Positions 1,738 through 50,371 of a DNA stretch of 64,000 bases are shown here, piece by piece. The notes beneath the pieces were generated by a model. That model was not told the DNA's origin. It made no database searches and was given only the letters and a program-made list of their open reading frames with translations. The stretch lies in the NCBI RefSeq assembly GCF_055900595.2, contig NZ_CM148325.1; one strand, written 5' to 3'. Position numbers and translations under genes: made by a program. Numbering within the stretch: position 1 is the stretch's first letter; each line of letters starts with the position of its first letter.

Positions 1738-3462
1738 TCAGACCTCCTGAGCCTGCAGCGGGTTAGCGAAATCGAAATAGATCACCGAAGGGTCAACAAT
1801 GGTGTTCTCGTTATGATCGTTCAGATAACAGAAAAAGTTACCTTTTACGTTCCAGTACGGACTTTCCAGCACGTAGTTGAGACAGGTTTTATGAGTCACC
1901 TGATCACGCACTTCAGCCAGCGATGCTCGTACACGAGCCATCAGATTCGATTCGCTGTCCAGCCCGGCAGCCCCCAGCGCAGCGGTCACAGCAAAAGTGG
2001 AGTTAACCAGCAGGTAATAAGGGAAATAGCGCAGCAACTGCTCATGGGTGAAAATATTTTCCGCCTGCGCCTCGCCAATAGAATCGAGCCAGTCTGTCGC
2101 GTGAGGCATAAAAGCGCTGCCCTGACAGTCACGGTAAATAAATCCGACCGGCAGATCCCCAAGCATCTGGACAAGAATATTTTGCTGATGCGCCAGCAGC
2201 ACCAGGCCGTAATCCGCTTCAGCCGTAAACAGCGGCTTTAGCACTTGCTGACAGTATGCATCGACCCATGCATGGGCGGCCTGTTGCACAGTGATACCGA
2301 GGCGATCGCTCAGGCGTTTTACCGCCGAAACCAGCAGCGAATCACCGCCATCAGGTGCGGCCTGAGTCAGGGAGACCAGTACGTTAGTCTGGCTTTTCGG
2401 CTGATCCACCAGCAGATTTTCACGCAGGGCAAACAGACTTTCCTGCATGATGTTGCCGTTAAGATCGCGCAGCCCGGCCCAGCCATCCTCCTGCATTACC
2501 CGGAAAGTCGGGAAGCGGACCTGTAGCATCTGCCAGCCGTCGGTTTGAGCCAGGCGTGCCAGGCGCATCCCACGCTTCACTTCTTTCACGGACAGAGTAC
2601 GGATGGAGTTGGTCAGCCGTACGCTCAGGGAGAACTTGATCATATCGCGGCTGGTGGCACAGTAGAGGGAACGGGAAGAGGTGGTCGGCAGCCACGACGT
2701 GCCGGCCTCACCTAAGTCTTTAATCAGCCCTTTAGCAACAAGTGCCTGGCACCACCCCTGCTGCAAAAGATATTCCCCCTGCCACGGGTGCAACGGGAAC
2801 AGCCATTGGTTGTCACTTAATTCGTTGAGTAACTGAGGCGCATTCTCTGCGGCAAATCGCGTCAGCCGCTGTTGAAGGTTGAGATGCAAACTTTCACCGG
2901 CGATTTGCGTTTTATCCACCGAAAACCACCGCAGTGGGAAGTGGGGTGCCATATCAGGCAGGTAGCGTTCAGCCTCCCGCCGGTTAAACGGTTCATGAGA
3001 CTTAGGCGCAGGGTGGAAAGCGTGTCCTGTCAGCAGCGCCTGCTCAGCCTCGCCAAAATTCAACGCTTTTTCACGCAGAGCGGCCCAGTCATGACGGGCA
3101 TCAATTGCCTGTTGCGTATGGACATGGCTTTCCAGCACGCGCTGGTGGAAAGTTTCGCAGAGGGGAACGGGCAGAAACAGTTGATGGCGTAGCTTATCAA
3201 TAATAAGCCGGGAGAGAGTGGTAAAGTCGACAGGATAACTGCCTGATGCCGTGACCAGACGTGCAGGAAATGCAAAGCGGTGATGCTGGGTTGGGGAGAA
3301 ATAAGCCACTCTGAAATGGAGCGATTTCTGCTCATCCAGCGGGATGAGCAATTCGTCTGGCGGGTATTCTGTCAGTTTCCAGTCTGTGGTTTCACGAATC
3401 AGTGCATTCAGGAAGCACTGCGCAGCCACATCTGTGGCTGGTTTTTCAGAGGGCAGGGTCAT
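1738..3462 (-). CDS. iucA: Aerobactin synthase IucA
   Basis: Track ORF 1738..3525; I place the start at the internal Met (MTLPSEKPATDVAAQCF...) at 3462, which sits just downstream of the Fur box; NRPS-independent siderophore synthetase family by recall. Confidence 0.9.
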   Translation of the reverse strand: MTLPSEKPATDVAAQCFLNALIRETTDWKLTEYPPDELLIPLDEQKSLHFRVAYFSPTQHHRFAFPARLVTASGSYPVDFTTLSRLIIDKLRHQLFLPVPLCETFHQRVLESHVHTQQAIDARHDWAALREKALNFGEAEQALLTGHAFHPAPKSHEPFNRREAERYLPDMAPHFPLRWFSVDKTQIAGESLHLNLQQRLTRFAAENAPQLLNELSDNQWLFPLHPWQGEYLLQQGWCQALVAKGLIKDLGEAGTSWLPTTSSRSLYCATSRDMIKFSLSVRLTNSIRTLSVKEVKRGMRLARLAQTDGWQMLQVRFPTFRVMQEDGWAGLRDLNGNIMQESLFALRENLLVDQPKSQTNVLVSLTQAAPDGGDSLLVSAVKRLSDRLGITVQQAAHAWVDAYCQQVLKPLFTAEADYGLVLLAHQQNILVQMLGDLPVGFIYRDCQGSAFMPHATDWLDSIGEAQAENIFTHEQLLRYFPYYLLVNSTFAVTAALGAAGLDSESNLMARVRASLAEVRDQVTHKTCLNYVLESPYWNVKGNFFCYLNDHNENTIVDPSVIYFDFANPLQAQEV

Positions 3463-32943: not shown

Positions 32944-33675
32944 ATGAATCAACCAATACACAATGCTTACTGGTTATCCCGTTTTGACAGCCTTCTCGAC
33001 AGTGCCCTGGTGCAGCACCGTGCCGTCTCGTTAATTCGGGTGGATTTACGTTTTCCTGAGTATATGCCTGCCACTATTATGGATACCGATTTAGATTCAG
33101 CAGTGATTTCTCGTTTTTTCGAATCCCTGAAAGCAAAAATTCAGGCTTACCAGCGGAAAAAACGACGTGCCAACAAGCGTGTGCATGCAACCACTCTGCG
33201 TTATTTCTGGTGTCGGGAGTTTGGCAAGGAAAAAGGCAGGAAACATTATCACGTGATATTACTGCTCAACAAAGATACCTGGTGCTCGCCAGGGGATTTC
33301 ACCGTTCCTTCTTCGCTGGCGACGCTGATCAAGCTGGCATGGTGTAGCGCTCTGCATCTTGAGCCCTGGCAGGGTAATGGACTGGTTCATTTTTCCAGGC
33401 GGGCGCCTTTCCGTAAACCGACATCATCTGATGCTCGCCCTTCTTCCGATGATACGCCTTTGTCGGGTGGATGTTCTGATACCCGGAAAGCTTCTGACAA
33501 AAAATCTGGTGGATCCGCTGTGCTCTGGGTCAAGCGTGGTGATGTGGAAGCGATGCAGAAAGCCATGGAGAGAGCCTGTTATCTCGTGAAGTATGAGACG
33601 AAGCAGCATGACGGTTCTGGTCAACGTAATTATGGTTGCAGTCGTGGGCCGGGGCGTTTACTGGATGGCAGGTGA
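32944..33675 (+). CDS. Rep-like HUH protein (inovirus Gp2 / YfjJ-YagK family), 243 aa
   Basis: HUH-type motif KHYHVILLLN; family recalled from CP4-type islands; conserved leader immediately upstream. Confidence 0.65.
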   Translation: MNQPIHNAYWLSRFDSLLDSALVQHRAVSLIRVDLRFPEYMPATIMDTDLDSAVISRFFESLKAKIQAYQRKKRRANKRVHATTLRYFWCREFGKEKGRKHYHVILLLNKDTWCSPGDFTVPSSLATLIKLAWCSALHLEPWQGNGLVHFSRRAPFRKPTSSDARPSSDDTPLSGGCSDTRKASDKKSGGSAVLWVKRGDVEAMQKAMERACYLVKYETKQHDGSGQRNYGCSRGPGRLLDGR

Positions 33676-34858: not shown

Positions 34859-36463
34859 ATGAATCCCGATTATGTGCAATCCTTGCAGACATCCCACCAC
34901 TTCCCAGCTGATTTAACCTACAGATTATTTCCTAGTGAGCTTGCGTATCTCATTGACGACTTATATGAAAGTACCCAACTTCCGTTGGAGCTCATTTTTA
35001 ATACTGTACTGGCAACGCTCTCACTCTCCTGTCAGTCATTGGTTGACGTTGTTCATCCTCACACCAACATGCCGGAACCCTGCTCACTTTATCTGTTGGC
35101 AATCGCAGAGCCAGGCGCGGGAAAAACAACGATAAACAGACTGGTGATGAACCCCTGTTACGAATTTGCCGATCGACTCATTCAACAATACGAAGAGAGA
35201 AACAAAGATTATAAGACTGAACTACAGATCTGGAATACCCGGCAGAAAGCGCTTGCTGCCAATTTAAGAAAGGTTGTTAACCGGGGGTATCCGGGGGAAC
35301 AGGAAGAAGAGGCGCTGCGTAATCACGAAAGAAATAAACCGACACGTCCGGTTCGACCGAATTTTATCTATGAAGATGTTTCGCTTAAAGCGCTTGTGGA
35401 AGGGCTCAATGAACATCCTGAGGCAGGGGTTATTTCTGATGAGGCGGTCACTTTTTTCAGAAGCTATCTGAAAAATTATCCGGGCCTGTTGAATAAAGCA
35501 TGGAGTGGGCAACCGTTTGATTTTGGACGGGCTGACGAGAAATACCATATCGCGCCACGTCTGACATTTTCGTTAATGTCTCAGCCGGATGTCTTTACGA
35601 ATTATATAAATAAAAATGACGTACTGGCGTGGGGAAGCGGATTTCTTTCCCGGTTTCTGTTCAGTCAGGTTGTAAGTTCTTCCTGGATACGTGATTATAC
35701 GAGAGGTGAGTTCAGAACAATATCAACCCTGGAGAACTTTCATAAAAAGATTAACGGATTCCTGTTAAACCACAACATTAATTTCCCCGGCATGAGCACC
35801 GAAAGGAAGACATTAAAACTTGCGAAGAAAGCGTTGGGGGAGTGGCAGGAAAACCAGATTAAGATTGAAAGAAAAGCGCTTGCAGGCGGGGAGTGGGAAC
35901 ACATCAGAGATATTGTTCTGAAAGCAGGCTCTAATATACTGAGGATAGCTGGAATATTCACCTGCTATTGCTATAAAGATGCTGAGGAAATTGAATCAAT
36001 TACGCTTTTTAAAGCTATGCATCTCATGGACTGGTATCTGGAGGAGGCGAGCACAATATTTTATCCCATGTCTGCACGATGCCAGTTTGAACAGGATGCC
36101 TGTGAACTGTATGCATGGATTATGACCCGAATAAGGCAGAATAATTGGCGTGCTATCAGGAAAACAGACATTGAAAGATATGGTCCCAATCGACTGAGAA
36201 GAGCAGAAAAACTTACACCTGTACTCAATCAGTTAATCTGTCAGGGGTATTTATGTATCATCAGAATGCGATCGCATCAGGCACTTTATGTTTCTGTTTA
36301 TTGTAACAATGGTTACCTCCTTCCTTTAGGCGCAATGTATTACGAACAGTTTGATATTGTTCTACCCGAGAATATTCATAAAGCGAAAGCATATCACGTT
36401 AATATTCCACCGGAATTAATTCCGTCATTTGCGTCACCTTTTTCAGAGTATAGCTTATTTTGA
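34859..36463 (+). CDS. DUF3987-type P-loop protein (YfjI-like, primase-associated family), about 534 aa
   Basis: Track ORF 34577..36463 trimmed to MNPDYV with strong RBS aaggaggt; Walker A-like AEPGAGKTT. Confidence 0.65.
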   Translation: MNPDYVQSLQTSHHFPADLTYRLFPSELAYLIDDLYESTQLPLELIFNTVLATLSLSCQSLVDVVHPHTNMPEPCSLYLLAIAEPGAGKTTINRLVMNPCYEFADRLIQQYEERNKDYKTELQIWNTRQKALAANLRKVVNRGYPGEQEEEALRNHERNKPTRPVRPNFIYEDVSLKALVEGLNEHPEAGVISDEAVTFFRSYLKNYPGLLNKAWSGQPFDFGRADEKYHIAPRLTFSLMSQPDVFTNYINKNDVLAWGSGFLSRFLFSQVVSSSWIRDYTRGEFRTISTLENFHKKINGFLLNHNINFPGMSTERKTLKLAKKALGEWQENQIKIERKALAGGEWEHIRDIVLKAGSNILRIAGIFTCYCYKDAEEIESITLFKAMHLMDWYLEEASTIFYPMSARCQFEQDACELYAWIMTRIRQNNWRAIRKTDIERYGPNRLRRAEKLTPVLNQLICQGYLCIIRMRSHQALYVSVYCNNGYLLPLGAMYYEQFDIVLPENIHKAKAYHVNIPPELIPSFASPFSEYSLF

Positions 36464-38027
36464 AATAACCTTACACAGATAAAACAAAATCAACCAACCT
36501 TCATTCGGAGGTTGGTGATAAGGCGTTTTGCATATCCTGCACCTATGCAAATGTTCACCAATTATGGGGGGTGAATGAGAATTTCTCTGAAAAAACCGCT
36601 ACGGTAGCAACAGTAGCAGCACATGCACCACATCTGTGATTTAATTTTGTTTTCATAATGACCTGCTGTCAGAGCTGGTTGAATACAGGAGTGTGCGCAC
36701 TGGTGGAAGCATGGCTTTCGTTTTTTTATTGATCGAAAGTGAATCGAAAGATTATTTTTAACATAGATTAAAGCTAATCATTAACCATATTGTGTGAGTT
36801 TTCATATATAACTTCGTTTGATTTTTGTCGTGATGAGTGCAGGTGTATATGATAATGTTGGTCTCTGCCTGAATAACGAATGGTTATCACTGTTACTGAA
36901 AAGAGATGCTGTTCAAGTTTGCATTTCAATAGGAGAGTGAAGAAAAATGATTTGATATTTTTTTCTGTAAGATAATGGTTTGTCATGTTCGTATTCAGAA
37001 CGGATGATTTCTTATTTTTACTCATCAAACATGGATAATTTTAATTTAGGTTTATTACTATAATTAGTATCTACCCCTTTATTTATCATCCATCTCTGCC
37101 CTTCATTTTCCCTCTCTGTCTTTACACATTCCATTACTCTTATTCTCATCCAGTTATATTCACTCCCTTCCTTGTCTAATCTGCATTGTCACCATTATCA
37201 TGGTATCCACCTTCTCCATTCCTCAATCATAACTACTGTAACTCATATGATACTCAGATAAGTTATTCTCTACTACGCTATTGCTGATATCCATCTGTTC
37301 CTGTTTTCAGTAAAATAATAATTTATTTTAATTTTATCTATCATGAGCTGTATTTGCTTAACAATGATTGTTTATCTGATATGTTTTAACCATTCCGGTA
37401 AATATCAATACTTCTGTCATCACTGATTAACTGAATGTTTACTCTTTGATAAGGTGTCCATGATTTCGTCATGTTTAACAGTGCAGGATAAACAATGAAA
37501 TTAACAGAGTGAATTCCTGATTATGTTTTTTTCGGGTTGTATTGTTTAAGATGCAGGGTAAAAATCATGCCAGTGGTATTTTTTACTCTGGTAATGTGTG
37601 CGGTTAACGTTCATGTCCTTAAGAACAGATTGGATGAGGGCGTATAAGTTTATTGTGTTGGCCTTGTATACGTTTTTTTTAGAACCACTGAGAGCAAGTT
37701 TGTAGTTTATGATGTTATTGGTCGTAATATGTTTCTTGAACTTCTGGTCGTGGGTTTTTATCGCGTGTTTTGCAGTATTTTGTGATGTTTATTGATTCTG
37801 TATTTTATTCGCTCCTCGTTTATCTCATCTCTTTAGCTAATACCATCAGATAATCCATTTATTTCTGCACAACGCTACGTGTCGTTAATAACCGACGTAT
37901 CCATTCTGTTACAGCATGCCTGATAAATACCGTCTGTAAGTTATTACCGTTTTAGATCTGATTATGAGCGAAAGCATTAATTCGTTTACAGCACTTAAAA
38001 CGTCATTAACTTTCAGGAGTCATCAGC

Positions 38028-38594
38028 ATGCCTAAATCTTACACACCAAACTGGTTTTTTACCGCTTTACTTGACAATCACATCAATCAAATGATGGCAC
38101 GCTATTCCTGCCTGCGGGCCTTACGCATGGATTTCTTCTACAGGAAAGATACGCCTGATTTCTTACAACCTGATCATCGCTGGCTTGAATTGCAGTTGCG
38201 TATGCTGCTGGAGCAGGTGGAACAATTTGAAAATATCGTTGGCTTCTTCTGGGTGATTGAATGGACGGCTGATCATGGTTTTCATGCGCATGCGGTTTTC
38301 TGGATCGATCGTCAGAGGGTTAAAAAAATATATCCCTTTGCGGAGCGGATTACGGAATGCTGGCGGTCTATTACGCATAACAGTGGTTCGGCACACCGCT
38401 GTACATATCAGCCGCATTATACATACAACATCAACATTCCTGTGCGCCACAACGATCCTGAAAGCATCGATAATATTCGCGGTGCCCTGCATTATCTGGC
38501 GAAAGAAGAACAAAAAGACGGGCTGTGTGCCTACGGCTGCAATGAAGTTCCTGAACGTCCTGCTGCAGGGCGTCCTCGTAAGCCTCACTTCTGA
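38028..38594 (+). CDS. Rep-like HUH protein (inovirus Gp2 / YfjJ family), 188 aa
   Basis: HUH-type motif HGFHAHAVFWID; same GT-rich leader architecture upstream as the 32944 gene. Confidence 0.6.
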   Translation: MPKSYTPNWFFTALLDNHINQMMARYSCLRALRMDFFYRKDTPDFLQPDHRWLELQLRMLLEQVEQFENIVGFFWVIEWTADHGFHAHAVFWIDRQRVKKIYPFAERITECWRSITHNSGSAHRCTYQPHYTYNINIPVRHNDPESIDNIRGALHYLAKEEQKDGLCAYGCNEVPERPAAGRPRKPHF

Positions 38595-38708
38595 AGCTTA
38601 AGGCCTGAGCCTCCGCTCCTGGAAACACTCCGTCGGTAAAACCTTACCGCCTTGATTAATGATGTGAACTGAAGTCAACGGAGATCATTCACCCTGAACC
38701 TGCATCCG

Positions 38709-39416
38709 GTGTTCTGTCCCTTATCTTCCCGTTCTGCTTCAGTTCTTCACTTATTCCATCAATCTCATCCGCAAGCCATAACACGTCAGCTCATTCACGG
38801 GCAGGACGCATTGTGGGCTGCGCATAACGGAACATATCTTATGAATGCTATTCCTTATTTCGACTATAGCCTGGCACCCTTCTGGCCATCTTATCAGAAC
38901 AAAGTCATCGGCGTCCTTGAGCGTGCGCTGCGTGAGCAGTCCGGCTCACGGATACGGCGGATCCTGCTTCGTCTGCCGTGGGAACATGACAACGCCTTCA
39001 ACAGCAGACAGACCTGGTTTGGTATGGATTTTATCGAAACCGTCAGTGCGCTGATGAATGCGAAACCCGGACGCGACCTTTGCTGGCTCCTGACCCGTCA
39101 TCCGGAAAAGCCGGAATACCACGTGGTGCTGTGCGTCAGACAGGAGTATTTCGACGGCCCCGAACTGGACCGGCTGATTCTGGATGCCTGGAGCAACGTA
39201 CTGGGCTTCGCGTCACCGGGGGAAGCGGCACCGTACCAGAAACAGATAACCCGGGATGTGGTGCTGGACAGTCGTTCACCGGACTGCGAAGACATCCTCA
39301 AAGATTTGATCTGGGCGTTCAGTGATTTCGCCCGCGATCGTCGTGGTGTGTGCGATCCGGAAGCCCGTTGCCTCGCCGGTAATCCCGGCTATCCCGGATC
39401 TGCAGGACCGTTCTGA
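38709..39416 (+). CDS. Hypothetical island protein (235 aa by track; true start uncertain)
   Basis: Track ORF upstream of alpA; the conserved leader motif precedes it but no ATG follows at the expected distance. Confidence 0.4.
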   Translation: MFCPLSSRSASVLHLFHQSHPQAITRQLIHGQDALWAAHNGTYLMNAIPYFDYSLAPFWPSYQNKVIGVLERALREQSGSRIRRILLRLPWEHDNAFNSRQTWFGMDFIETVSALMNAKPGRDLCWLLTRHPEKPEYHVVLCVRQEYFDGPELDRLILDAWSNVLGFASPGEAAPYQKQITRDVVLDSRSPDCEDILKDLIWAFSDFARDRRGVCDPEARCLAGNPGYPGSAGPF

Positions 39417-39484
39417 GAATACGGCTCAGCACCTTTCCCCGCATTCGCACAACCTTCATAAATCTCACAGAGGATATTCTGACC

Positions 39485-39721
39485 ATGTTGACCTCAATGA
39501 CAGGCCACGACTGCGTGTTGCTGCGTGCCGACGATCCCCTGATCGACATGAACTACATCACCAGTTTCACCGGTATGACAGATAAATGGTTTTACAAGCT
39601 GATCAGTGAAGGCCATTTCCCGAAACCCATCAAGCTGGGCCGCAGCAGCCGCTGGTACAAAAGTGAAGTGGAGCAGTGGATGCAGCAGCGAATTGAGGAA
39701 TCACGAGGAGCAGCAGCATGA
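39485..39721 (+). CDS. AlpA-family phage regulatory/excisionase-like protein
   Basis: ...MNYITSFTGMTDKWFYKLISEGHFPKPIKLGRSSRWYKSEVEQWMQQR fits the AlpA wHTH family; start may be the internal Met at 39548. Confidence 0.7.
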   Translation: MLTSMTGHDCVLLRADDPLIDMNYITSFTGMTDKWFYKLISEGHFPKPIKLGRSSRWYKSEVEQWMQQRIEESRGAAA

Positions 39722-39912
39722 AACGTGTTGCAATGTCGGCGCTGGTATTGCGGAAATCAGCCCTGTCCCTGGTGCTGGCGACATTACCGTTCATCTTCCT
39801 GCTGACCCTCTCCGGTCAGCCAGCAGATTGTAGCTCTTTCCTGACTGATTCGTCATTCCATTCACATTGTTTATAACTGGCATTACACCGGTGTTGATGC
39901 GCACCTTCCCGT

Positions 39913-40512
39913 GTGTCTGCACCGGCTGAACAAAATTCAACAGGGTTTGAAAAGGAACATTTCGTGCAAATAACCGAAGCATTAATTTCAGAGCCGGGAG
40001 ACATCCGGCGTTTTATTCAGCAGGCGGTGGACCACTGGCCGCATTTGCTGGCATTTTACTTCACACTCCATTCGGCAGAAGGAAATATCAACGGGCAACA
40101 GATTCATGCATTCTGTACTTCCTTTTACCGACAGGTGCACGAACGTATTACTGAGCGTAATCACACGGCCAGTCCATCATCGCCGGTGGTGTTACGCTGG
40201 TTGCGGGAACAACATGGAGGAGCAACAATTCGATGCCTGTTGCTGCTCAGCCAGACGAGTATTTGTCACCCGCGAGCCAGTGTCACAGTTGATGAACAAT
40301 GTTCGCAAATGGTGGATTTATTGCAACAGACATGGCGGGTGATAAGTGCTGACGGACAATGCCGGGTGGAAAGGTGTTTTCAGGCTGCCCGGGGTGATAC
40401 ATCCGGCCAGTATATTGCGTTAAAAACAGTTGCATTGTCTCTGGGGTTACCGGTTGTGACCGGTATTACCCATCGCCCGGTACAGCGCTGTACATTGATT
40501 ACAGCTCAGTGA
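39913..40512 (+). CDS. Hypothetical protein (199 aa)
   Basis: Track ORF downstream of alpA; family not recognised. Confidence 0.45.
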   Translation: MSAPAEQNSTGFEKEHFVQITEALISEPGDIRRFIQQAVDHWPHLLAFYFTLHSAEGNINGQQIHAFCTSFYRQVHERITERNHTASPSSPVVLRWLREQHGGATIRCLLLLSQTSICHPRASVTVDEQCSQMVDLLQQTWRVISADGQCRVERCFQAARGDTSGQYIALKTVALSLGLPVVTGITHRPVQRCTLITAQ

Positions 40513-40529
40513 ACAGCGCTGTTGTGCAG

Positions 40530-40832
40530 TCAACGAGGTTTTCTGTCTTTTCGTCGGTCATTCAGCATCATTAAACGGGTCTCTGCCTCTTTCTGTTCCT
40601 GTGGTGTCACTTCCCCGCACGGCTGACCGTTCAGGTTGTAACGGGCGCCACCTGCTATTAACGCACGGTAATAGCGCGGAGACTGCACATAAGACGCCAC
40701 TGCTGCATGTAATGTACCAGCGCCAAACGCCAGTTCTCGGATGGCGATATCCTGTATCAGGTCGTCAGGTATCCCCACTTTAAGTGGTTTTGTTTTTTTC
40801 CCGGTTGAATGACTCAGGCCAGAGTTCCACAA
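40530..40832 (-). CDS. Hypothetical protein (100 aa), possibly part of a frameshifted gene with ORF 40847..41041
   Basis: Two adjacent minus-strand ORFs in different frames. Confidence 0.35.
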   Translation of the reverse strand: MWNSGLSHSTGKKTKPLKVGIPDDLIQDIAIRELAFGAGTLHAAVASYVQSPRYYRALIAGGARYNLNGQPCGEVTPQEQKEAETRLMMLNDRRKDRKPR

Positions 40833-41633
40833 GACGAATAATGCGCTTACGGTTTTTGCTCTGGCGTTTTGTCATGTCGCCACGGTGTTTTATCAGCAGG
40901 TTTCTGTTTATCGTTCAACTGTGGTATCTGGTCACCGGCCTTCATTTTGTATGCTGTGTCCGTTTTATTCTGCAGCGGCGTTGCCGGTGATTTACTGAAA
41001 ATACCCTGCGGTTTACGGTTAATGGTCAGAGTTACCATCAATTTTGTTACCTCGCGCTGTCAATGGAAGTAGTACCTCATCCGATATCTGAAAATGTTTT
41101 CCGGTGGATGTTACAGCGAATTTCATGTAAGACATGTTGTTGTCGGTATTGTTCAGTACTGTGCGTTGTGAGCGTATTCGTTATCAGACAGAGGGGCAGG
41201 GAACAAACGTCAGAGGTTAAGGATATCCGGGAACAAATGGCGTAAACGGACATCTCAGTGCCTGAGAAACAGTACAGGTCAGGCCATCATGGCCTGCAAA
41301 CAGAGCCCTGGCGACCCCGTGGCCGAAAACGAAACAATAACCCGCGCGCAGTGCGAGGAATCCGGATGTGAAGCAATCAGCAGGTAATATTAATGGCAGG
41401 ACCAGCAGGTTCTTTAAACAAACGAACATGCTGTAATTGATATTTTGCTTATTGTATTTTCTTTTTAGTTATTAAATTAATTTATTTACGAAAAATTTTC
41501 TGCAGATACAGGATGGGAATTCAGGGTGTCATCACGCCTTATGATGACACCCTTCCCCTGGTTGTGGAAAACCGAAGGATATATCAGGTTCAGCAACAAA
41601 ATCAGTGAGCTGAAAGATACCAGTCCCCCAGCT

Positions 41634-42653
41634 TCAGCAGCTTTCACGTAAACATAAACAGGGCTCAATGAATATCTGATTGCTCCAGTTACCTTCTTTA
41701 ATTCGTTCCAGCAAAACATTTCCTGCTTCCAGACCAATTTTCCTGTGAGGAACGGCCATTGTTGTTAATGATGGTTGGCAAACTTTGCTGACGTCACTGT
41801 CACCAAATCCTACTACGGCGAGCTCGTCTGGAACTTTGATCCGTCTTCGTTGACATTCATAGAGAACACCGCAGGCTAACTCATCTGACACACATACCAG
41901 GGCATCCAGTTCCGGCCATGCGAGCAAAAATTCCGGTAGTTGTGATGCTCCGGTGGAAAAAACAGGTGGCAGAGCAGCGTTAATAACACGGTTGGGAGAC
42001 ATATGATGGCGTAACATAGCTTTATACCATCCCTGTAAATGCTGCTGAAAGATCCACTGTTCCTGGTTAGCGCATAGCAAACCGATATTCTGATAACCAC
42101 GTTGTACCAGCATATCCGTCAGCTCGAACATTGCTGCAACATTATCAATACCAATGTTGATATCTATCGGATCAGTACGAATGGCACCGATTTCTATAAC
42201 AGGAATCGAGGCATTTTTGAGCAAGTGACGCACGGTACTATTATGCTCAACACTAAGCAAAATTGCTGCAGCGATATTAGAAGCCAGCAGGGTTTCCAGC
42301 AGTTTTTCTTCTTGTTCCAGACGATGGCGTGACTCAGCCAGGATTATTTGATACCCCGCTGGTTGTAGCACATGTTGCAGCCCGGCAAACATTTCCGTGC
42401 ATCCCGCTTCAGCCAGGTTTGGCACGACCATTGCGATCGTGTGTGAAGATGCCGATGCCAGTGCGCTTGCAGTGAGGTTGGGCATATACCCTAATTCATT
42501 AACTGCGGCTTCAATCTTCTCCCTCAATTTATCTGAAACTTGTTCGGGAGTGCGTAACGCTCTGGATACAGTCATTGTGCCAACTCCCGCGAGTTGCGCG
42601 ACATCAGCAATAGTGACTTTACCTGTACTACGACGTTTTCGGGTTATTGCCAT
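41634..42653 (-). CDS. LacI-family transcriptional repressor (339 aa)
   Basis: N-terminal HTH (VTIADVAQLAGVGTMTVSRALR) plus periplasmic-binding-protein-like sugar-binding domain; divergent from the PTS operon. Confidence 0.85.
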   Translation of the reverse strand: MAITRKRRSTGKVTIADVAQLAGVGTMTVSRALRTPEQVSDKLREKIEAAVNELGYMPNLTASALASASSHTIAMVVPNLAEAGCTEMFAGLQHVLQPAGYQIILAESRHRLEQEEKLLETLLASNIAAAILLSVEHNSTVRHLLKNASIPVIEIGAIRTDPIDINIGIDNVAAMFELTDMLVQRGYQNIGLLCANQEQWIFQQHLQGWYKAMLRHHMSPNRVINAALPPVFSTGASQLPEFLLAWPELDALVCVSDELACGVLYECQRRRIKVPDELAVVGFGDSDVSKVCQPSLTTMAVPHRKIGLEAGNVLLERIKEGNWSNQIFIEPCLCLRESC

Positions 42654-47377: not shown

Positions 47378-48033
47378 TGTAGTCAATAAGGGTGTCATAT
47401 TCAACATGAAGATGTCTTCTGGGAATGTTTACATAGCAAATGCTTTCACTCCGGTAATTAATTTCCGTGATTAACTGCTTTCGATCAATAAAGGAATTGC
47501 AAAAGTGTGATCTTGCTCACGACATTGTGGATGATAATATGCCTGATGTCTGAATCCGGAAACAGTGCTCTGGCGGGTTTCATGTGAAGTTGACGGATAA
47601 AAAATCCTCACGACCAGACAGACGTGCGGTTTACGAAATTCGTAACAAGAGGCTTTTCTACGGATCACGTGGTGCGTGCCACGTGAAATTTTTGTAGCGC
47701 AAAATGTGCAATGTGTAAATACAAGGAAGGAAAAAGTTAAATTGGTGGAAGTCCATGCCTGCCACATGTACGTCTGCATTCCTCGTTTTGAACAGAATTC
47801 TCACCAGACATCGTGAATTTCTCATTCAATCTGCAAAATGGCATCTGAATCGATCGCAGTTTGGCATTCGAATCGATCATGATTTGGCATCCATCTCCGA
47901 TCACAGTTTGGCATCACAATCGATCACGATTTGGCATGCTTCCGATCATTGATTGGCATCCTGCCAGTCACTCCGGGAATTCACTCTTTTCACCACAGTC
48001 TCCATTGCCGTGTTTAAACCAGTGGAGACGTCA

Positions 48034-49599
48034 ATGTCCAGAAAGCGAAAATCCAGGAGCACTATGGAAACCTGTTTTAAGATCCTTCAGCTCAAGTTCG
48101 ACAAGAAGCTGACTAACCGTTGTATCGGACTGACGTTACACATCAGCGCCTCAACCGTTTTTGAGGTTATTGCCCGCTTCAAAGCCTCTTCTCTGCCATG
48201 GCCATTACCTGCTGATATATCCCATGACACGCTGGAGAAACTCATTTTTCCGCCCAAAGACACCTTTGCATCAGAGCTTGTAATGCCTGACATGTTGTAC
48301 TTCGATACGGAAATGAGAAAACCAGGTGTGACGCGGCAACTGCTGTGGATGGAATACAAGGCACAGGCAGGTGACAAAGCGATGGGATACTCGCACTTCT
48401 GCCTTTGCTACCGGGAGTGGAAAAAAACGCGACGTCTCTCCATGCGCCAGGAGCATCGTGCCGGCGAAAAGCTTTTTATCGACTTCTGTGGTCCTACTGT
48501 TCCTGTTATTAATCCGGACACCGGTGAGATACGCCGCGTGGCAATCTTCGTGGCCGTAATGGGGGCGTCCAAGTATACCTACGTTGAAGCGTGCGAAGGT
48601 CAGGACATGATGTCATGGTTAAATGCCCACAGCCGTTGCCTGACCTTCCTGGGCGGCGTACCGAAGCTGCTCATCCCCGATAACCTCAGAAGCGCAGTGA
48701 AAAAGACCGATCGCTATGAGCCTGTCATCAACGACAGTTATCAGGCACTGGCTGAGCACTATGGCACGGTTATCATCCCGGCCCGACCACGCAAACCTAA
48801 AGATAAACCAAAAGCAGAAAACGGCGTCCTCATCGTCGAACGATGGCTTCTTGCCCGCATCCGTAATGAAACCTTCCACACGCTCAGGGCGCTGAATGCG
48901 CGCCTTTGGGAGTTACTGACAGACATGAATAACCGGCCAATGAAGGGGTACGGCAATCAAACCCGTGCAGAACGCTTCCGCATACTGGATGCGCCAGCTC
49001 TCTCTCCGCTGCCTCTGACACCTTATGAATACACGGAATACAAAGCCGTGAAGGTTGGCCCTGACTACCACGTTGAATATGCCCGTCACTGGTACTCCGT
49101 TCCACACGAACTGGTCGGTCAGCGTCTGTCACTGAAAGCGGGGCAGTCGGTGGTACAGCTCTGGCACAAGGGGCAGTGTGTGGCACAACATCCGCGCAGC
49201 ACACATGAATATAAACACACAACCAATCCGCTTCACATGCCAGAGCGCCACCGGCAGCACGGGACATGGACACCGGAACGCCTTATCGGGCAGGGAAAAC
49301 GTACGGGCCCGTCCACAGGCCGGGTGGTTGAATCCATGCTGAAGGCAAAACCCCATCCGGAACTGGCTTATCGTGCAGTTCTGGGGCTGCTGGCACTTCA
49401 GAAAAAATACGGCCCGGAACGGCTGGAAAAGGCCTGTTACGTTGCCCTGCACTATAATGCCCCGGACAGACGCTTTATCGACAATCTGCTGCGTCACCAT
49501 CGGGAGAACCTGGAGCTTCCGTTATCCCGCCAGGGCGAACAACATCCGGCATATGCTTCAGAGCATGAAAACCTGTGTGGTCCGGGCTACTACCACTGA
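48034..49599 (+). CDS. istA: IS21-family transposase IstA
   Basis: Track ORF trimmed to MSRKRKS with GGAG RBS; HTH plus DDE-type integrase core. Confidence 0.85.
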   Translation: MSRKRKSRSTMETCFKILQLKFDKKLTNRCIGLTLHISASTVFEVIARFKASSLPWPLPADISHDTLEKLIFPPKDTFASELVMPDMLYFDTEMRKPGVTRQLLWMEYKAQAGDKAMGYSHFCLCYREWKKTRRLSMRQEHRAGEKLFIDFCGPTVPVINPDTGEIRRVAIFVAVMGASKYTYVEACEGQDMMSWLNAHSRCLTFLGGVPKLLIPDNLRSAVKKTDRYEPVINDSYQALAEHYGTVIIPARPRKPKDKPKAENGVLIVERWLLARIRNETFHTLRALNARLWELLTDMNNRPMKGYGNQTRAERFRILDAPALSPLPLTPYEYTEYKAVKVGPDYHVEYARHWYSVPHELVGQRLSLKAGQSVVQLWHKGQCVAQHPRSTHEYKHTTNPLHMPERHRQHGTWTPERLIGQGKRTGPSTGRVVESMLKAKPHPELAYRAVLGLLALQKKYGPERLEKACYVALHYNAPDRRFIDNLLRHHRENLELPLSRQGEQHPAYASEHENLCGPGYYH

Positions 49600-49615
49600 C
49601 AGAAGGAACAACAGT

Positions 49616-50371
49616 ATGAGTGATAACCTGTTAAACAAACTGACCCAACTGAAACTCCCGGCGATGGCCGGGAGCCTGATACGGCAGCGGGAAACGCCTC
49701 AGACCTACGACGAGCTGTCGTTCGAGGAAAGGCTGACGCTGCTGGTTGATGACGAGCTTCTGAGCAGGGAAAACATCCGTGTGGCACGGTTGAGAAAAAA
49801 TGCCGGCCTGAAATACCAGGCAACACCGGAAGGGCTGCGCTATCCGGCCTCAAGAGGTCTGCGGGCTGAACAGATGAGGGAACTGCTGAACGGCCACTAC
49901 ATAACCCACAGGAAAAACCTGCTGATAACCGGTCCGACAGGATGTGGCAAGAGCTGGATAGCCAATGCGCTGGGCGAACAGGCATGTCGACAGAAACACA
50001 GCGTCCGGTACTGTAGAACCGGGCGATTACTGGAACAACTGGCTCAGGGACGTGTTGATGGCAGCTGGCTGAAGTATCTGAAACAGTTGCAAAAAATACA
50101 GGTTCTAATCCTGGACGATCTGGGGCTGGAGTCGTTAAGTAACGCCCAGTGTAATGACCTTCTGGAGCTCATAGAGGATCGTTACGGACAAAGCAGCACG
50201 ATAGTGGTAAGCCAGTTCCCGGTAGATAAATGGCATGGTCTGATGGAGAAGCCAACAACAGCAGATGCCATCCCGGACAGACTGGTACATAACTCACACA
50301 GACTAGTCCTTCAGGGAGAGTCCCTGAGGAAAAATCCCTCGATAGTGGAAAGCATCGAAAAAACGAGTTAA
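49616..50371 (+). CDS. istB: IS21-family helper ATPase IstB
   Basis: Walker A GPTGCGKSW; start MSDNLLNKL inside track ORF 49373..50371. Confidence 0.9.
   Translation: MSDNLLNKLTQLKLPAMAGSLIRQRETPQTYDELSFEERLTLLVDDELLSRENIRVARLRKNAGLKYQATPEGLRYPASRGLRAEQMRELLNGHYITHRKNLLITGPTGCGKSWIANALGEQACRQKHSVRYCRTGRLLEQLAQGRVDGSWLKYLKQLQKIQVLILDDLGLESLSNAQCNDLLELIEDRYGQSSTIVVSQFPVDKWHGLMEKPTTADAIPDRLVHNSHRLVLQGESLRKNPSIVESIEKTS

Follow-up and report, generated by a model that had tools for sequence, protein, structure and literature searches.

FinO-domain proteins encoded by mobile elements are narrowly dedicated regulators of their own element: the target of FinO is FinP/traJ, that of FopA and PcnR is plasmid replication control, and FinO-domain genes often erode after chromosomal integration (PMC9977716). 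We describe an E. coli locus of this kind in a stretch of DNA of 64,000 nucleotides (contig NZ_CM148325.1 of RefSeq assembly GCF_055900595.2; hereafter the window), which annotation and profile searches identify as a composite E. coli island. We consider it probable (about 0.8) that the interval 39913..41041 belongs to a CP4-57/YfjI-YfjJ-type E. coli genomic island and makes up the distal end of its conserved backbone, where an intact gene of the UCP030791 family and a FinO-domain pseudogene are arranged convergently. A sequence-only reading of the same DNA had assigned no recognisable family to the one plus-strand and two minus-strand open reading frames (ORFs) found there; however, the minus strand encodes a ProQ/FinO protein (PF04352) and the plus strand a UCP030791 protein (PF27752). 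The score of the ProQ/FinO match, the numbers of public contigs that carry the exact products and the 334 homologues returned by a homologue search for the plus-strand protein together indicate that all three ORFs are real conserved coding sequence and not chance.

Backbone of the island and its distal boundary

From left to right the island carries genes for a YeeP-like GTPase, a Gp2 protein, a YfjI/DUF3987 protein, a YagK/YfjJ protein and a hypothetical protein, followed by those for AlpA, a small ORF (orf52) and the UCP030791 protein. The row formed by the last three converges on the FinO-like gene, beyond which a LacI regulator with PTS and transketolase genes is found. The features at this end of the island are as follows.

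39485..39721, plus strand: alpA, an AlpA/excisionase-type HTH regulator of 78 aa (PF05930 Phage_AlpA, E 2e-10)
39718..39876, plus strand: orf52, a small hydrophobic ORF of 52 aa whose start overlaps the alpA stop codon (ATGA)
39964..40512, plus strand: UCP030791-family (PF27752) gene, intact, 182 aa (homologues of 549 nt; GTG start with upstream AAGGA)
40513..40529, between the strands: spacer of 17 nt separating the convergent stop codons, containing the palindrome AACAGCGCTGTT
40530..41038, minus strand: probable ProQ/FinO-family pseudogene with two frameshifts, its span equal to the 509-nt RefSeq pseudogene annotation
41042..41428, minus strand: conserved and non-coding, upstream of the FinO-like gene; the conserved backbone ends at its distal edge (TTCGTTTGTTTAAAG...)

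Homologues of alpA in E. coli are annotated as helix-turn-helix or AlpA family regulators. The exact product of orf52 occurs on at least 1000 public contigs and is annotated as a 159-nt gene for a hypothetical protein in the related island L006; searches of the Pfam, PHROGs and PADLOC profiles returned no family match for it. Together with the UCP030791 gene, alpA and orf52 probably form one transcription unit with alpA at its head. A terminator scan predicted no intrinsic terminator in the spacer 40513..40529.

Upstream of the FinO-like gene, homology with other islands runs on for about 385 nt and then breaks off abruptly near 41428, past which the islands carry different cargo (dndBC in L006, IS1 in L005, ECs1377/microcin genes in L007). 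Because the cargo beyond this point is variable and the homology before it conserved, the earlier remark that the region lies at the boundary of a phage-like module and a metabolic operon was right: the backbone meets its LacI/PTS/transketolase cargo here. The sequence-only reading had named a lack of conservation in related elements as what would refute it; the genes do prove to be conserved there. The window is itself a mosaic, being about 100% identical to strains N61 and M21170 from about 40400 rightwards and only 87-95% identical in the segment 38600..40400.

None of the six backbone proteins was matched by PADLOC, so they do not represent a recognised defence system. An Rfam scan of 36400..42000 gave zero matches, and a known antisense or sRNA partner was not found. 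The conserved 385 nt before the FinO-like gene were considered as a possible sRNA or leader, but this was rejected: the folds of single sequences do not agree with one another, and the alifold consensus, for which there were too few distinct sequences, is weak (-16.3). Also rejected was a terminator-like hairpin on the plus strand (40775..40787), the T-tail of which is the frameshift run; its stem is not conserved in relatives and it is therefore regarded as chance. The adjoining transketolase/PTS operon is not the published tkt1 island, which lies between metE and ysgA and differs in gene content (PMC3349570).

A frameshifted ProQ/FinO-family gene on the minus strand

The ORF list confirmed the three ORFs exactly at the coordinates that had been given for them, with the two on the minus strand (40530..40832, 100 aa; 40847..41041, 64 aa; both with a TTG start) in different frames. 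The suspicion that these two represent a frameshifted gene was borne out, since the profile match, the RefSeq annotation and the alignment with relatives make them parts of one ProQ/FinO gene. What did not stand is the count of two frames: a 31-aa piece in a further frame lies between the two listed ORFs, and there are thus two frameshifts and three frame segments.

40847..41038, minus strand: frame A, a basic N-terminal extension of 63 aa (MVTLTINRKPQ...); the listed 64-aa ORF begins at a TTG one codon upstream
40874..40877, minus strand: lesion 1, loss of one AT unit from CATATG near 40875, shifting frame A to B (intact relatives GACATATGAC, window GACATGAC)
40780..40875, minus strand: frame B, a 31-aa segment (MTKRQSKNRKRIIRLVELWPESFNREKNKTT, ending at a stop codon) with the first FinO-domain helix, from three-frame translation
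40793..40799, minus strand: lesion 2, expansion of A6 to A7 (T7 on the plus strand), shifting frame B to C, from alignment with relatives
40530..40832, minus strand: frame C, the 100-aa ORF with the remainder of the FinO domain and the conserved pocket Tyr and Arg in it (PF04352, 62.3 bits)

The 100-aa piece matches PF04352 (ProQ/FinO) with 62.3 bits and E 4.9e-17 over profile positions 23-107 (cut-off 27), and also matches the NCBIfam ProQ and FinO models. When frame B is joined to it by dropping one A, the ProQ match extends to positions 6-114 and the score goes up. The FinO-like protein matches the FinO model NF010317 (6.9e-12) and scores 51 bits with the NCBIfam ProQ equivalog, far under the cut-off of 127. 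RefSeq gives the homologous 509-nt locus the label 'ProQ/FINO family protein, frameshifted' in all of the close relatives that were examined. We also compared the fully repaired protein (169 aa) with solved FinO-domain structures, among which it matched the ProQ NTD (5nb9, E 1.5e-10), NMB1681 (3mw6, E 3.4e-9), RocC (7rgu, E 7.3e-8) and FinO (1dvo, E 1.1e-6). In the alignment to 5nb9 and 7rgu, 'PRYY' pairs with 'WRYL' and 'GGARYNL' with 'GATRVDL', and a Tyr and an Arg are conserved, which we take to be the RNA 3'-end pocket equivalent to ProQ Y70/R80.

Intact FinO-like relatives are 158-180 aa long and comprise a basic tail and a FinO domain. The lesions were located by aligning the window with intact homologues of other E. 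coli islands, namely L007 (167 aa, WP_000258197.1), L008 (158 aa) and L009 (170 aa): the window has lost 2 nt at one site and gained 1 nt at the other, so that the reading frame through the ProQ/FinO domain is interrupted by two frameshifts relative to these homologues; in tblastn and tblastx comparisons with near and distant relatives the frame jumps exactly at both lesions (40874/40875 for lesion 1). Both lesions are of the typical slipped-strand kind. Lesion 1 separates the 63-aa basic tail from the FinO core, and frame B begins at an internal ATG that is the start of a 114-aa ORF in relatives with the N-terminal lesion only. Such relatives include L005, with the same AT loss, and L006, with an independent 5-nt insertion, both of which keep the 114-aa ORF from the internal ATG. 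ORFs of 114 aa are annotated in L005, L006, L015 and L016, and the 114-aa core P0085 is found on 408 contigs. At lesion 2 the run is A6 in the in-frame allele and A5CC, A6 or A4TCC in divergent relatives; the tract reads GGGAAAAACC, GGGAAAAAAC or GTGAAAATCC in relatives and GGGAAAAAAAC in the window. L005 looks recombinant, combining a window-like N-terminal part with an L006-L008-like core, and for this reason dN/dS as a measure of selection on the core after lesion 1 is confounded.

FinO-like matches in complete E. coli genomes fall at 1,512 places, all of them chromosomal and none on a plasmid, and the island gene is a multi-copy accessory with up to 8 places per genome. The core of the family is under purifying selection (pairwise dN/dS 0.10-0.34). 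Distant relatives (55-62% identity) are found in modules with the order DUF4222 - DUF927 or D5/Pox_D5 primase-helicase - SSB - ProQ - PerC, one of these relatives being present in 4,005 index blocks. The intact 165-aa homologue P0110 comes from a primase-SSB module. Such modules fit a role tied to element replication, and the ancestry of the FinO-like gene points to the replication module of a satellite-like element. Among phages, the FinO-like protein matched only function-unknown groups in PHROGs, and tblastn against 50,697 phage records gave only 8 matches, all to remote FinO-domain proteins (26-42% identity). A literature search found no paper on island-borne FinO proteins.

The A6 and A7 alleles

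Among 5,426 complete E. coli genomes, the exact A7 allele, searched as a 91-mer, occurs in 347, which come from many hosts; it is therefore heritable and not a sequencing error. The exact A6 allele (a 90-mer) occurs in two of the 5,426. BEN2908 and AR_0085 are examples of strains with the A7 allele. The A6 allele (L015/L016) shares the LacI-PTS context of the window copy, and its annotated product is a ProQ/FinO protein of 114 aa, P0022, which is found on 19 public contigs. Of the exact products of the window copy, the 100-aa fragment is present on 63 public contigs and the 63-aa fragment on at least 1000. Apart from the run itself, the A7 and A6 alleles do not differ (dN = dS = 0), which, given the purifying selection on the family, suggests that the inactivation seen here is recent. 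The frameshift at the A-run is confined to one shallow lineage and is not conserved across divergent lineages, and the divergent relatives are in frame, which argues for an inherited pseudogene and against programmed frameshifting. The FinO-like gene of the window is most likely an inherited pseudogene, the protein of which is most likely not made, or made at most in trace amounts by slippage at A7.

The A7 run could alternatively be a functional recoding or slippage site: transcription that drops one A, or +1 ribosomal slippage on AAA AAA A, would bring back the 114-aa FinO core in a fixed, small amount. Or A6 and A7 could be the states of a phase-variable switch. We regard either possibility as quite improbable. 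A homopolymeric run lies exactly at the shift, deletion of a single A recreates a natural allele (P0022, L015, L016), NZ_CP033635.1 carries both A6 and A7 copies, and the A7 allele is stable and frequent (347 genomes); but the divergent relatives with A5CC, A6 or A4TCC are in frame, so that the shift is unconserved, unlike programmed sites, the ratio of 347 to 2 argues against frequent switching, the gene contains a second, unrelated frameshift, and no stimulatory element was identified. In addition, seven adenines are short for efficient transcriptional slippage, for which A-runs of nine or more are typical. A biologically designed low-level rescue by A7 slippage is unlikely. It is very unlikely, too, that the pieces function separately, as a truncated FinO domain of 100 aa translated from the TTG and/or as an independent basic peptide of 63 aa. 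Many public annotations do list both products as proteins, the Tyr/Arg pocket is retained in the 100-aa piece, and one study describes the minimal FinO-domain protein NMB1681 as functional alone (PMC7272453). However, the 100-aa ORF is without profile positions 1-22, that is, the first domain helix, for which frame B codes; the TTG with which this ORF starts falls within sequence that is out of frame, no ribosome-binding site being evident, and PGAP handles the locus as one pseudogene. Two independent N-terminal lesions (the AT loss and the 5-nt insertion of L006) spare the widespread 114-aa core, so the core alone could be functional, and if it is, the A7 allele could represent the loss of a still-useful gene, or a leaky one, rather than plain decay.

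The plus-strand gene and the UCP030791 family

The plus-strand ORF as listed (39913..40512, 199 aa) has a GTG start and extends 51 nt further upstream in the same frame as the gene given above. Its coordinates were confirmed but its length of 199 aa was not: RefSeq homologues are 549 nt long, the alignment of family members begins at the residue of GTG 39964, and an AAGGA motif lies 7-8 nt before this codon with nothing comparable before 39913, which makes a product of 182 aa the most likely one. The true start of the coding sequence is most probably GTG 39964 and not 39913.

PF27752 is precomputed on all 120 listed homologues (78-93% identity), and the 182-aa protein shares a 90%-identity cluster with P0125, a PF27752 carrier; it belongs to UCP030791 (PF27752) by way of these listed homologues and the representative of its own cluster. 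The protein itself had no match in the profile libraries of Pfam (a copy without PF27752), NCBIfam, PHROGs or PADLOC. PGAP names its homologues 'UCP030791 family putative phage-derived protein', 'YagK/YfjJ domain-containing protein', 'inovirus-type Gp2 protein' or 'hypothetical protein'. The family is small and enterobacterial, with 56 clusters at 50% identity among 1.84 billion representatives, and a full-text literature search for 'UCP030791' found no paper. AlpA is encoded upstream of UCP030791 even in relatives at 29-37% identity, where no FinO gene adjoins. Distant relatives of the one gene or the other have not kept UCP030791 and ProQ adjacent, so that the two do not have to act jointly, and the comparison suggests that they are neighbours and not an obligate pair.

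Profile comparisons were made with a 22-sequence alignment of UCP030791 members (A1) and with the following paralogue in the window.

32944..33675: canonical Gp2/YagK_YfjJ_C paralogue, 243 aa (PF11726, 127.7 bits; REP_ORF2-G2P, 35.2 bits)

PF11726 (YagK_YfjJ_C) was matched weakly by six of the 22 A1 members (best E 7e-4, below the gathering threshold); the gathering score was reached by none of the 22, and the window's own 182-aa protein did not match this profile. In hhalign, A1 aligned with the Gp2-family paralogue at 89.8% probability (E 1.8e-6, 80 columns), and the UCP030791 profile gave no signal with the paralogue candidates at 38028..38594 and 38844..39416 (0.5% and 1.5% probability, respectively). 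The HUH motif is not retained: the HYH of the paralogue pairs with T-I-R in UCP030791, and the family consensus at this site is x-x-R, with both His absent. An AlphaFold (AF2) model of UCP030791 is confident (pLDDT 87.5, pTM 0.84). Its named matches in a BFVD structure search were mostly microvirus/parvovirus Rep proteins and one 'Inovirus Gp2', all weak, and a Foldseek search against the PDB returned nothing significant. UCP030791 is predicted to have a Rep/Gp2-like alpha/beta fold, and it has lost the HUH metal-binding motif. We conclude that UCP030791 is a remote, HUH-less relative of the YagK/YfjJ/inovirus-Gp2 Rep-like group, and it probably binds nucleic acid without being catalytic and serves the island as an accessory or regulatory protein.

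The remote homology to YagK/YfjJ/Gp2, the Rep-type proteins among the structural neighbours and a mostly conserved Tyr in the last helix ('QY..L') might suggest that UCP030791 works as a rolling-circle nuclease of the Rep type and, like inovirus gpII, nicks an origin on the island; this is highly improbable, because the HUH motif is replaced (HYH by T-I-R, with x-x-R in the consensus), the last-helix Tyr is F or H in some members, and no member among the 22 reaches the gathering threshold of PF11726. The sequence-only reading had also proposed a comparison with small regulators of the P4 Ash/Icd type, and the presence of alpA and a DUF3987/YfjI protein in the neighbourhood, together with the P4-alpha-like D5/Pox_D5 primases that adjoin some distant FinO-like relatives, could be taken to mean that the two genes are regulators of P4-type immunity or helper exploitation. 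That proposal is effectively refuted: tblastn of the 182-aa protein against 50,697 phage records, satellites included, gave no match, the FinO-like protein matches only remote FinO-domain proteins of phages, and both genes have clear family assignments outside P4.

Discussion

Both genes belong to catalogued families that are common in E. coli genomic islands and are already annotated as such, RefSeq marking the minus-strand gene as frameshifted in hundreds of E. coli genomes, and in this respect the finding is ordinary. It nevertheless corrects the description of the region, which is not family-less: the minus-strand ORFs become one probable pseudogene with two defined lesions, and the start of the plus-strand gene moves to 39964. 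It also provides two leads, namely a widespread chromosomal, island-specific branch of FinO-domain proteins, with distant members in primase-SSB replication modules, and UCP030791, a Rep-like family that has no HUH motif and is tightly linked to alpA. Either lead could open the regulation of very common E. coli islands to study.

As to the history of the FinO-like gene, the AT loss near 40875 probably came first and cut the basic N-terminal tail off the FinO core, and the expansion of A6 to A7 (40793..40799) came later, breaking the 114-aa core ORF. By analogy with FinO, FopA, PcnR and RocC, the most likely ligand of intact relatives is the 3'-terminal hairpin of an RNA that the element encodes, and its binding may repress an element function, e.g., replication; such intact relatives are probably element-specific RNA chaperones. 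The window copy would then illustrate the erosion of FinO-domain genes after chromosomal integration. A bolder proposal is that island FinO-domain proteins, a large family in E. coli, are dedicated RNA chaperones that act through an RNA of the element to control the replication or excision of satellite/PICI-like and CP4-type islands, with a functional 114-aa core and A6/A7 as a slippage-prone switch that tunes or silences it; taken as a whole, we consider this distinctly unlikely.

Comparison with known systems

Within PF27752 (PIRSF UCP030791), the 182-aa protein has equal length and the conserved motifs VDHYPRL, PSPPTLLRWLWE and RMLLL; it shows no distinguishing feature and is an ordinary member, 92-93% identical to common variants. 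It is remotely homologous to the YagK/YfjJ and inovirus Gp2 proteins (PF11726) and is found in a like island neighbourhood, but it is without HUH and shorter (182 vs 243 aa).

The FinO-like protein resembles FinO of F-like plasmids, FopA of pCol1B9 and PcnR in being small, in combining a basic N-terminal extension with a FinO domain and in being encoded by a mobile element. However, these three are plasmid-borne, whereas the 1,512 matches in complete E. coli genomes are all chromosomal; the Rfam scan and folding found no FinP/Inc-like antisense RNA partner nearby, and the window copy is broken by two frameshifts. Among solved structures, its best matches are E. coli ProQ and Neisseria NMB1681, with which it shares the conserved Tyr and Arg, and the 114-aa core ORF is about the same size as NMB1681. 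Unlike ProQ, the FinO-like protein has neither a linker nor a Tudor-like C-terminal domain, and in contrast to proQ of the core genome, its gene is an accessory, multi-copy gene of islands.

Genes and mosaic structure of the island

Several Gp2/YagK/YfjJ-like genes lie on the island. Recognisability falls from the canonical member through the weak member and UCP030791 to the 190-aa neighbour. They are listed here together with a small ORF that follows alpA and an insertion-sequence pair.

Features to the left and right of the FinO-like gene
32944..33675 (+), canonical Gp2/YagK/YfjJ member, 243 aa, 127.7 bits
38028..38594 (+), weak Gp2/YagK/YfjJ member, 188 aa, 21.5 bits, H-A-H kept
38844..39416 (+), 190-aa neighbour gene, no detectable relation to Gp2/YagK/YfjJ (hhalign 1.5%)
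39718..39876 (+), 52-aa hydrophobic ORF, its ATG overlapping the alpA stop codon (ATGA)
39964..40512 (+), UCP030791, lacking the His-hydrophobic-His (HUH) motif
47953..50371 (+), IS21-like pair, after the transketolase genes

The exact product of the 52-aa ORF is encoded on at least 1000 public contigs, and some E. coli genomes annotate it as a hypothetical protein. No family match was found for it; a small membrane protein co-translated with AlpA is one possibility. The IS21-like pair consists of a transposase (rve and Mu-transposase C-terminal domains) and an IstB ATPase, and is missing from otherwise matching E. coli loci, which have only a short transposase remnant there.

The UCP030791 gene has a mosaic breakpoint in its 3' part: the sequence to the right of the breakpoint (40400..42000) shares about 100% identity with strains N61 and M21170, whereas the sequence to the left (38600..40400) shares only 87-95%, which implies recombination between island copies.

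The FinO-like gene and its surroundings

Two further features lie at the FinO-like pseudogene.

Further features at the FinO-like gene
40775..40799 (+), terminator-like hairpin CCACTTTAAGTGG followed by TTTTGTTTTTTT, antisense to the gene
41042..41428 (-), conserved non-coding sequence of about 385 nt, upstream of the gene

The T-tail of the hairpin is the T7 run of the gene's frameshift site; because the stem is not kept in relatives, the resemblance to a terminator is probably due to chance. The upstream region ends at a sharp boundary (TTCGTTTGTTTAAAGAACC...) that is common to islands with wholly different cargo, and the most divergent relative (L009) keeps its first ~50 nt. A search of this region against Rfam gave no match, and RNA folding yielded no consistent structure. 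The region may serve as a promoter or mark a recombination junction.

Another lineage, represented by locus L006 (E. coli NDM3), carries at 2600..2700 a 5-nt insertion (CCTGCTCTGCTG) that arose independently and breaks the FinO-like gene in its N-terminal part; the 114-aa core ORF is again spared, and the protein cluster matching this core (P0085) occurs on 408 contigs. That the N-terminal tail has been lost more than once, and the core kept each time, may be significant.

FinO-like relatives with 55-62% identity were found at loci L017-L023 in E. coli, Citrobacter braakii and Salmonella enterica subsp. salamae, in a conserved module: DUF4222, then a primase-helicase (DUF927 or D5/Pox_D5), SSB, ProQ/FinO, and PerC or an unknown gene. 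One of these FinO-like variants (P0110) is present in 4,005 index blocks. Its make-up suggests the replication module of a satellite or PICI-like element that is very common, with the FinO-domain protein as part of the module.
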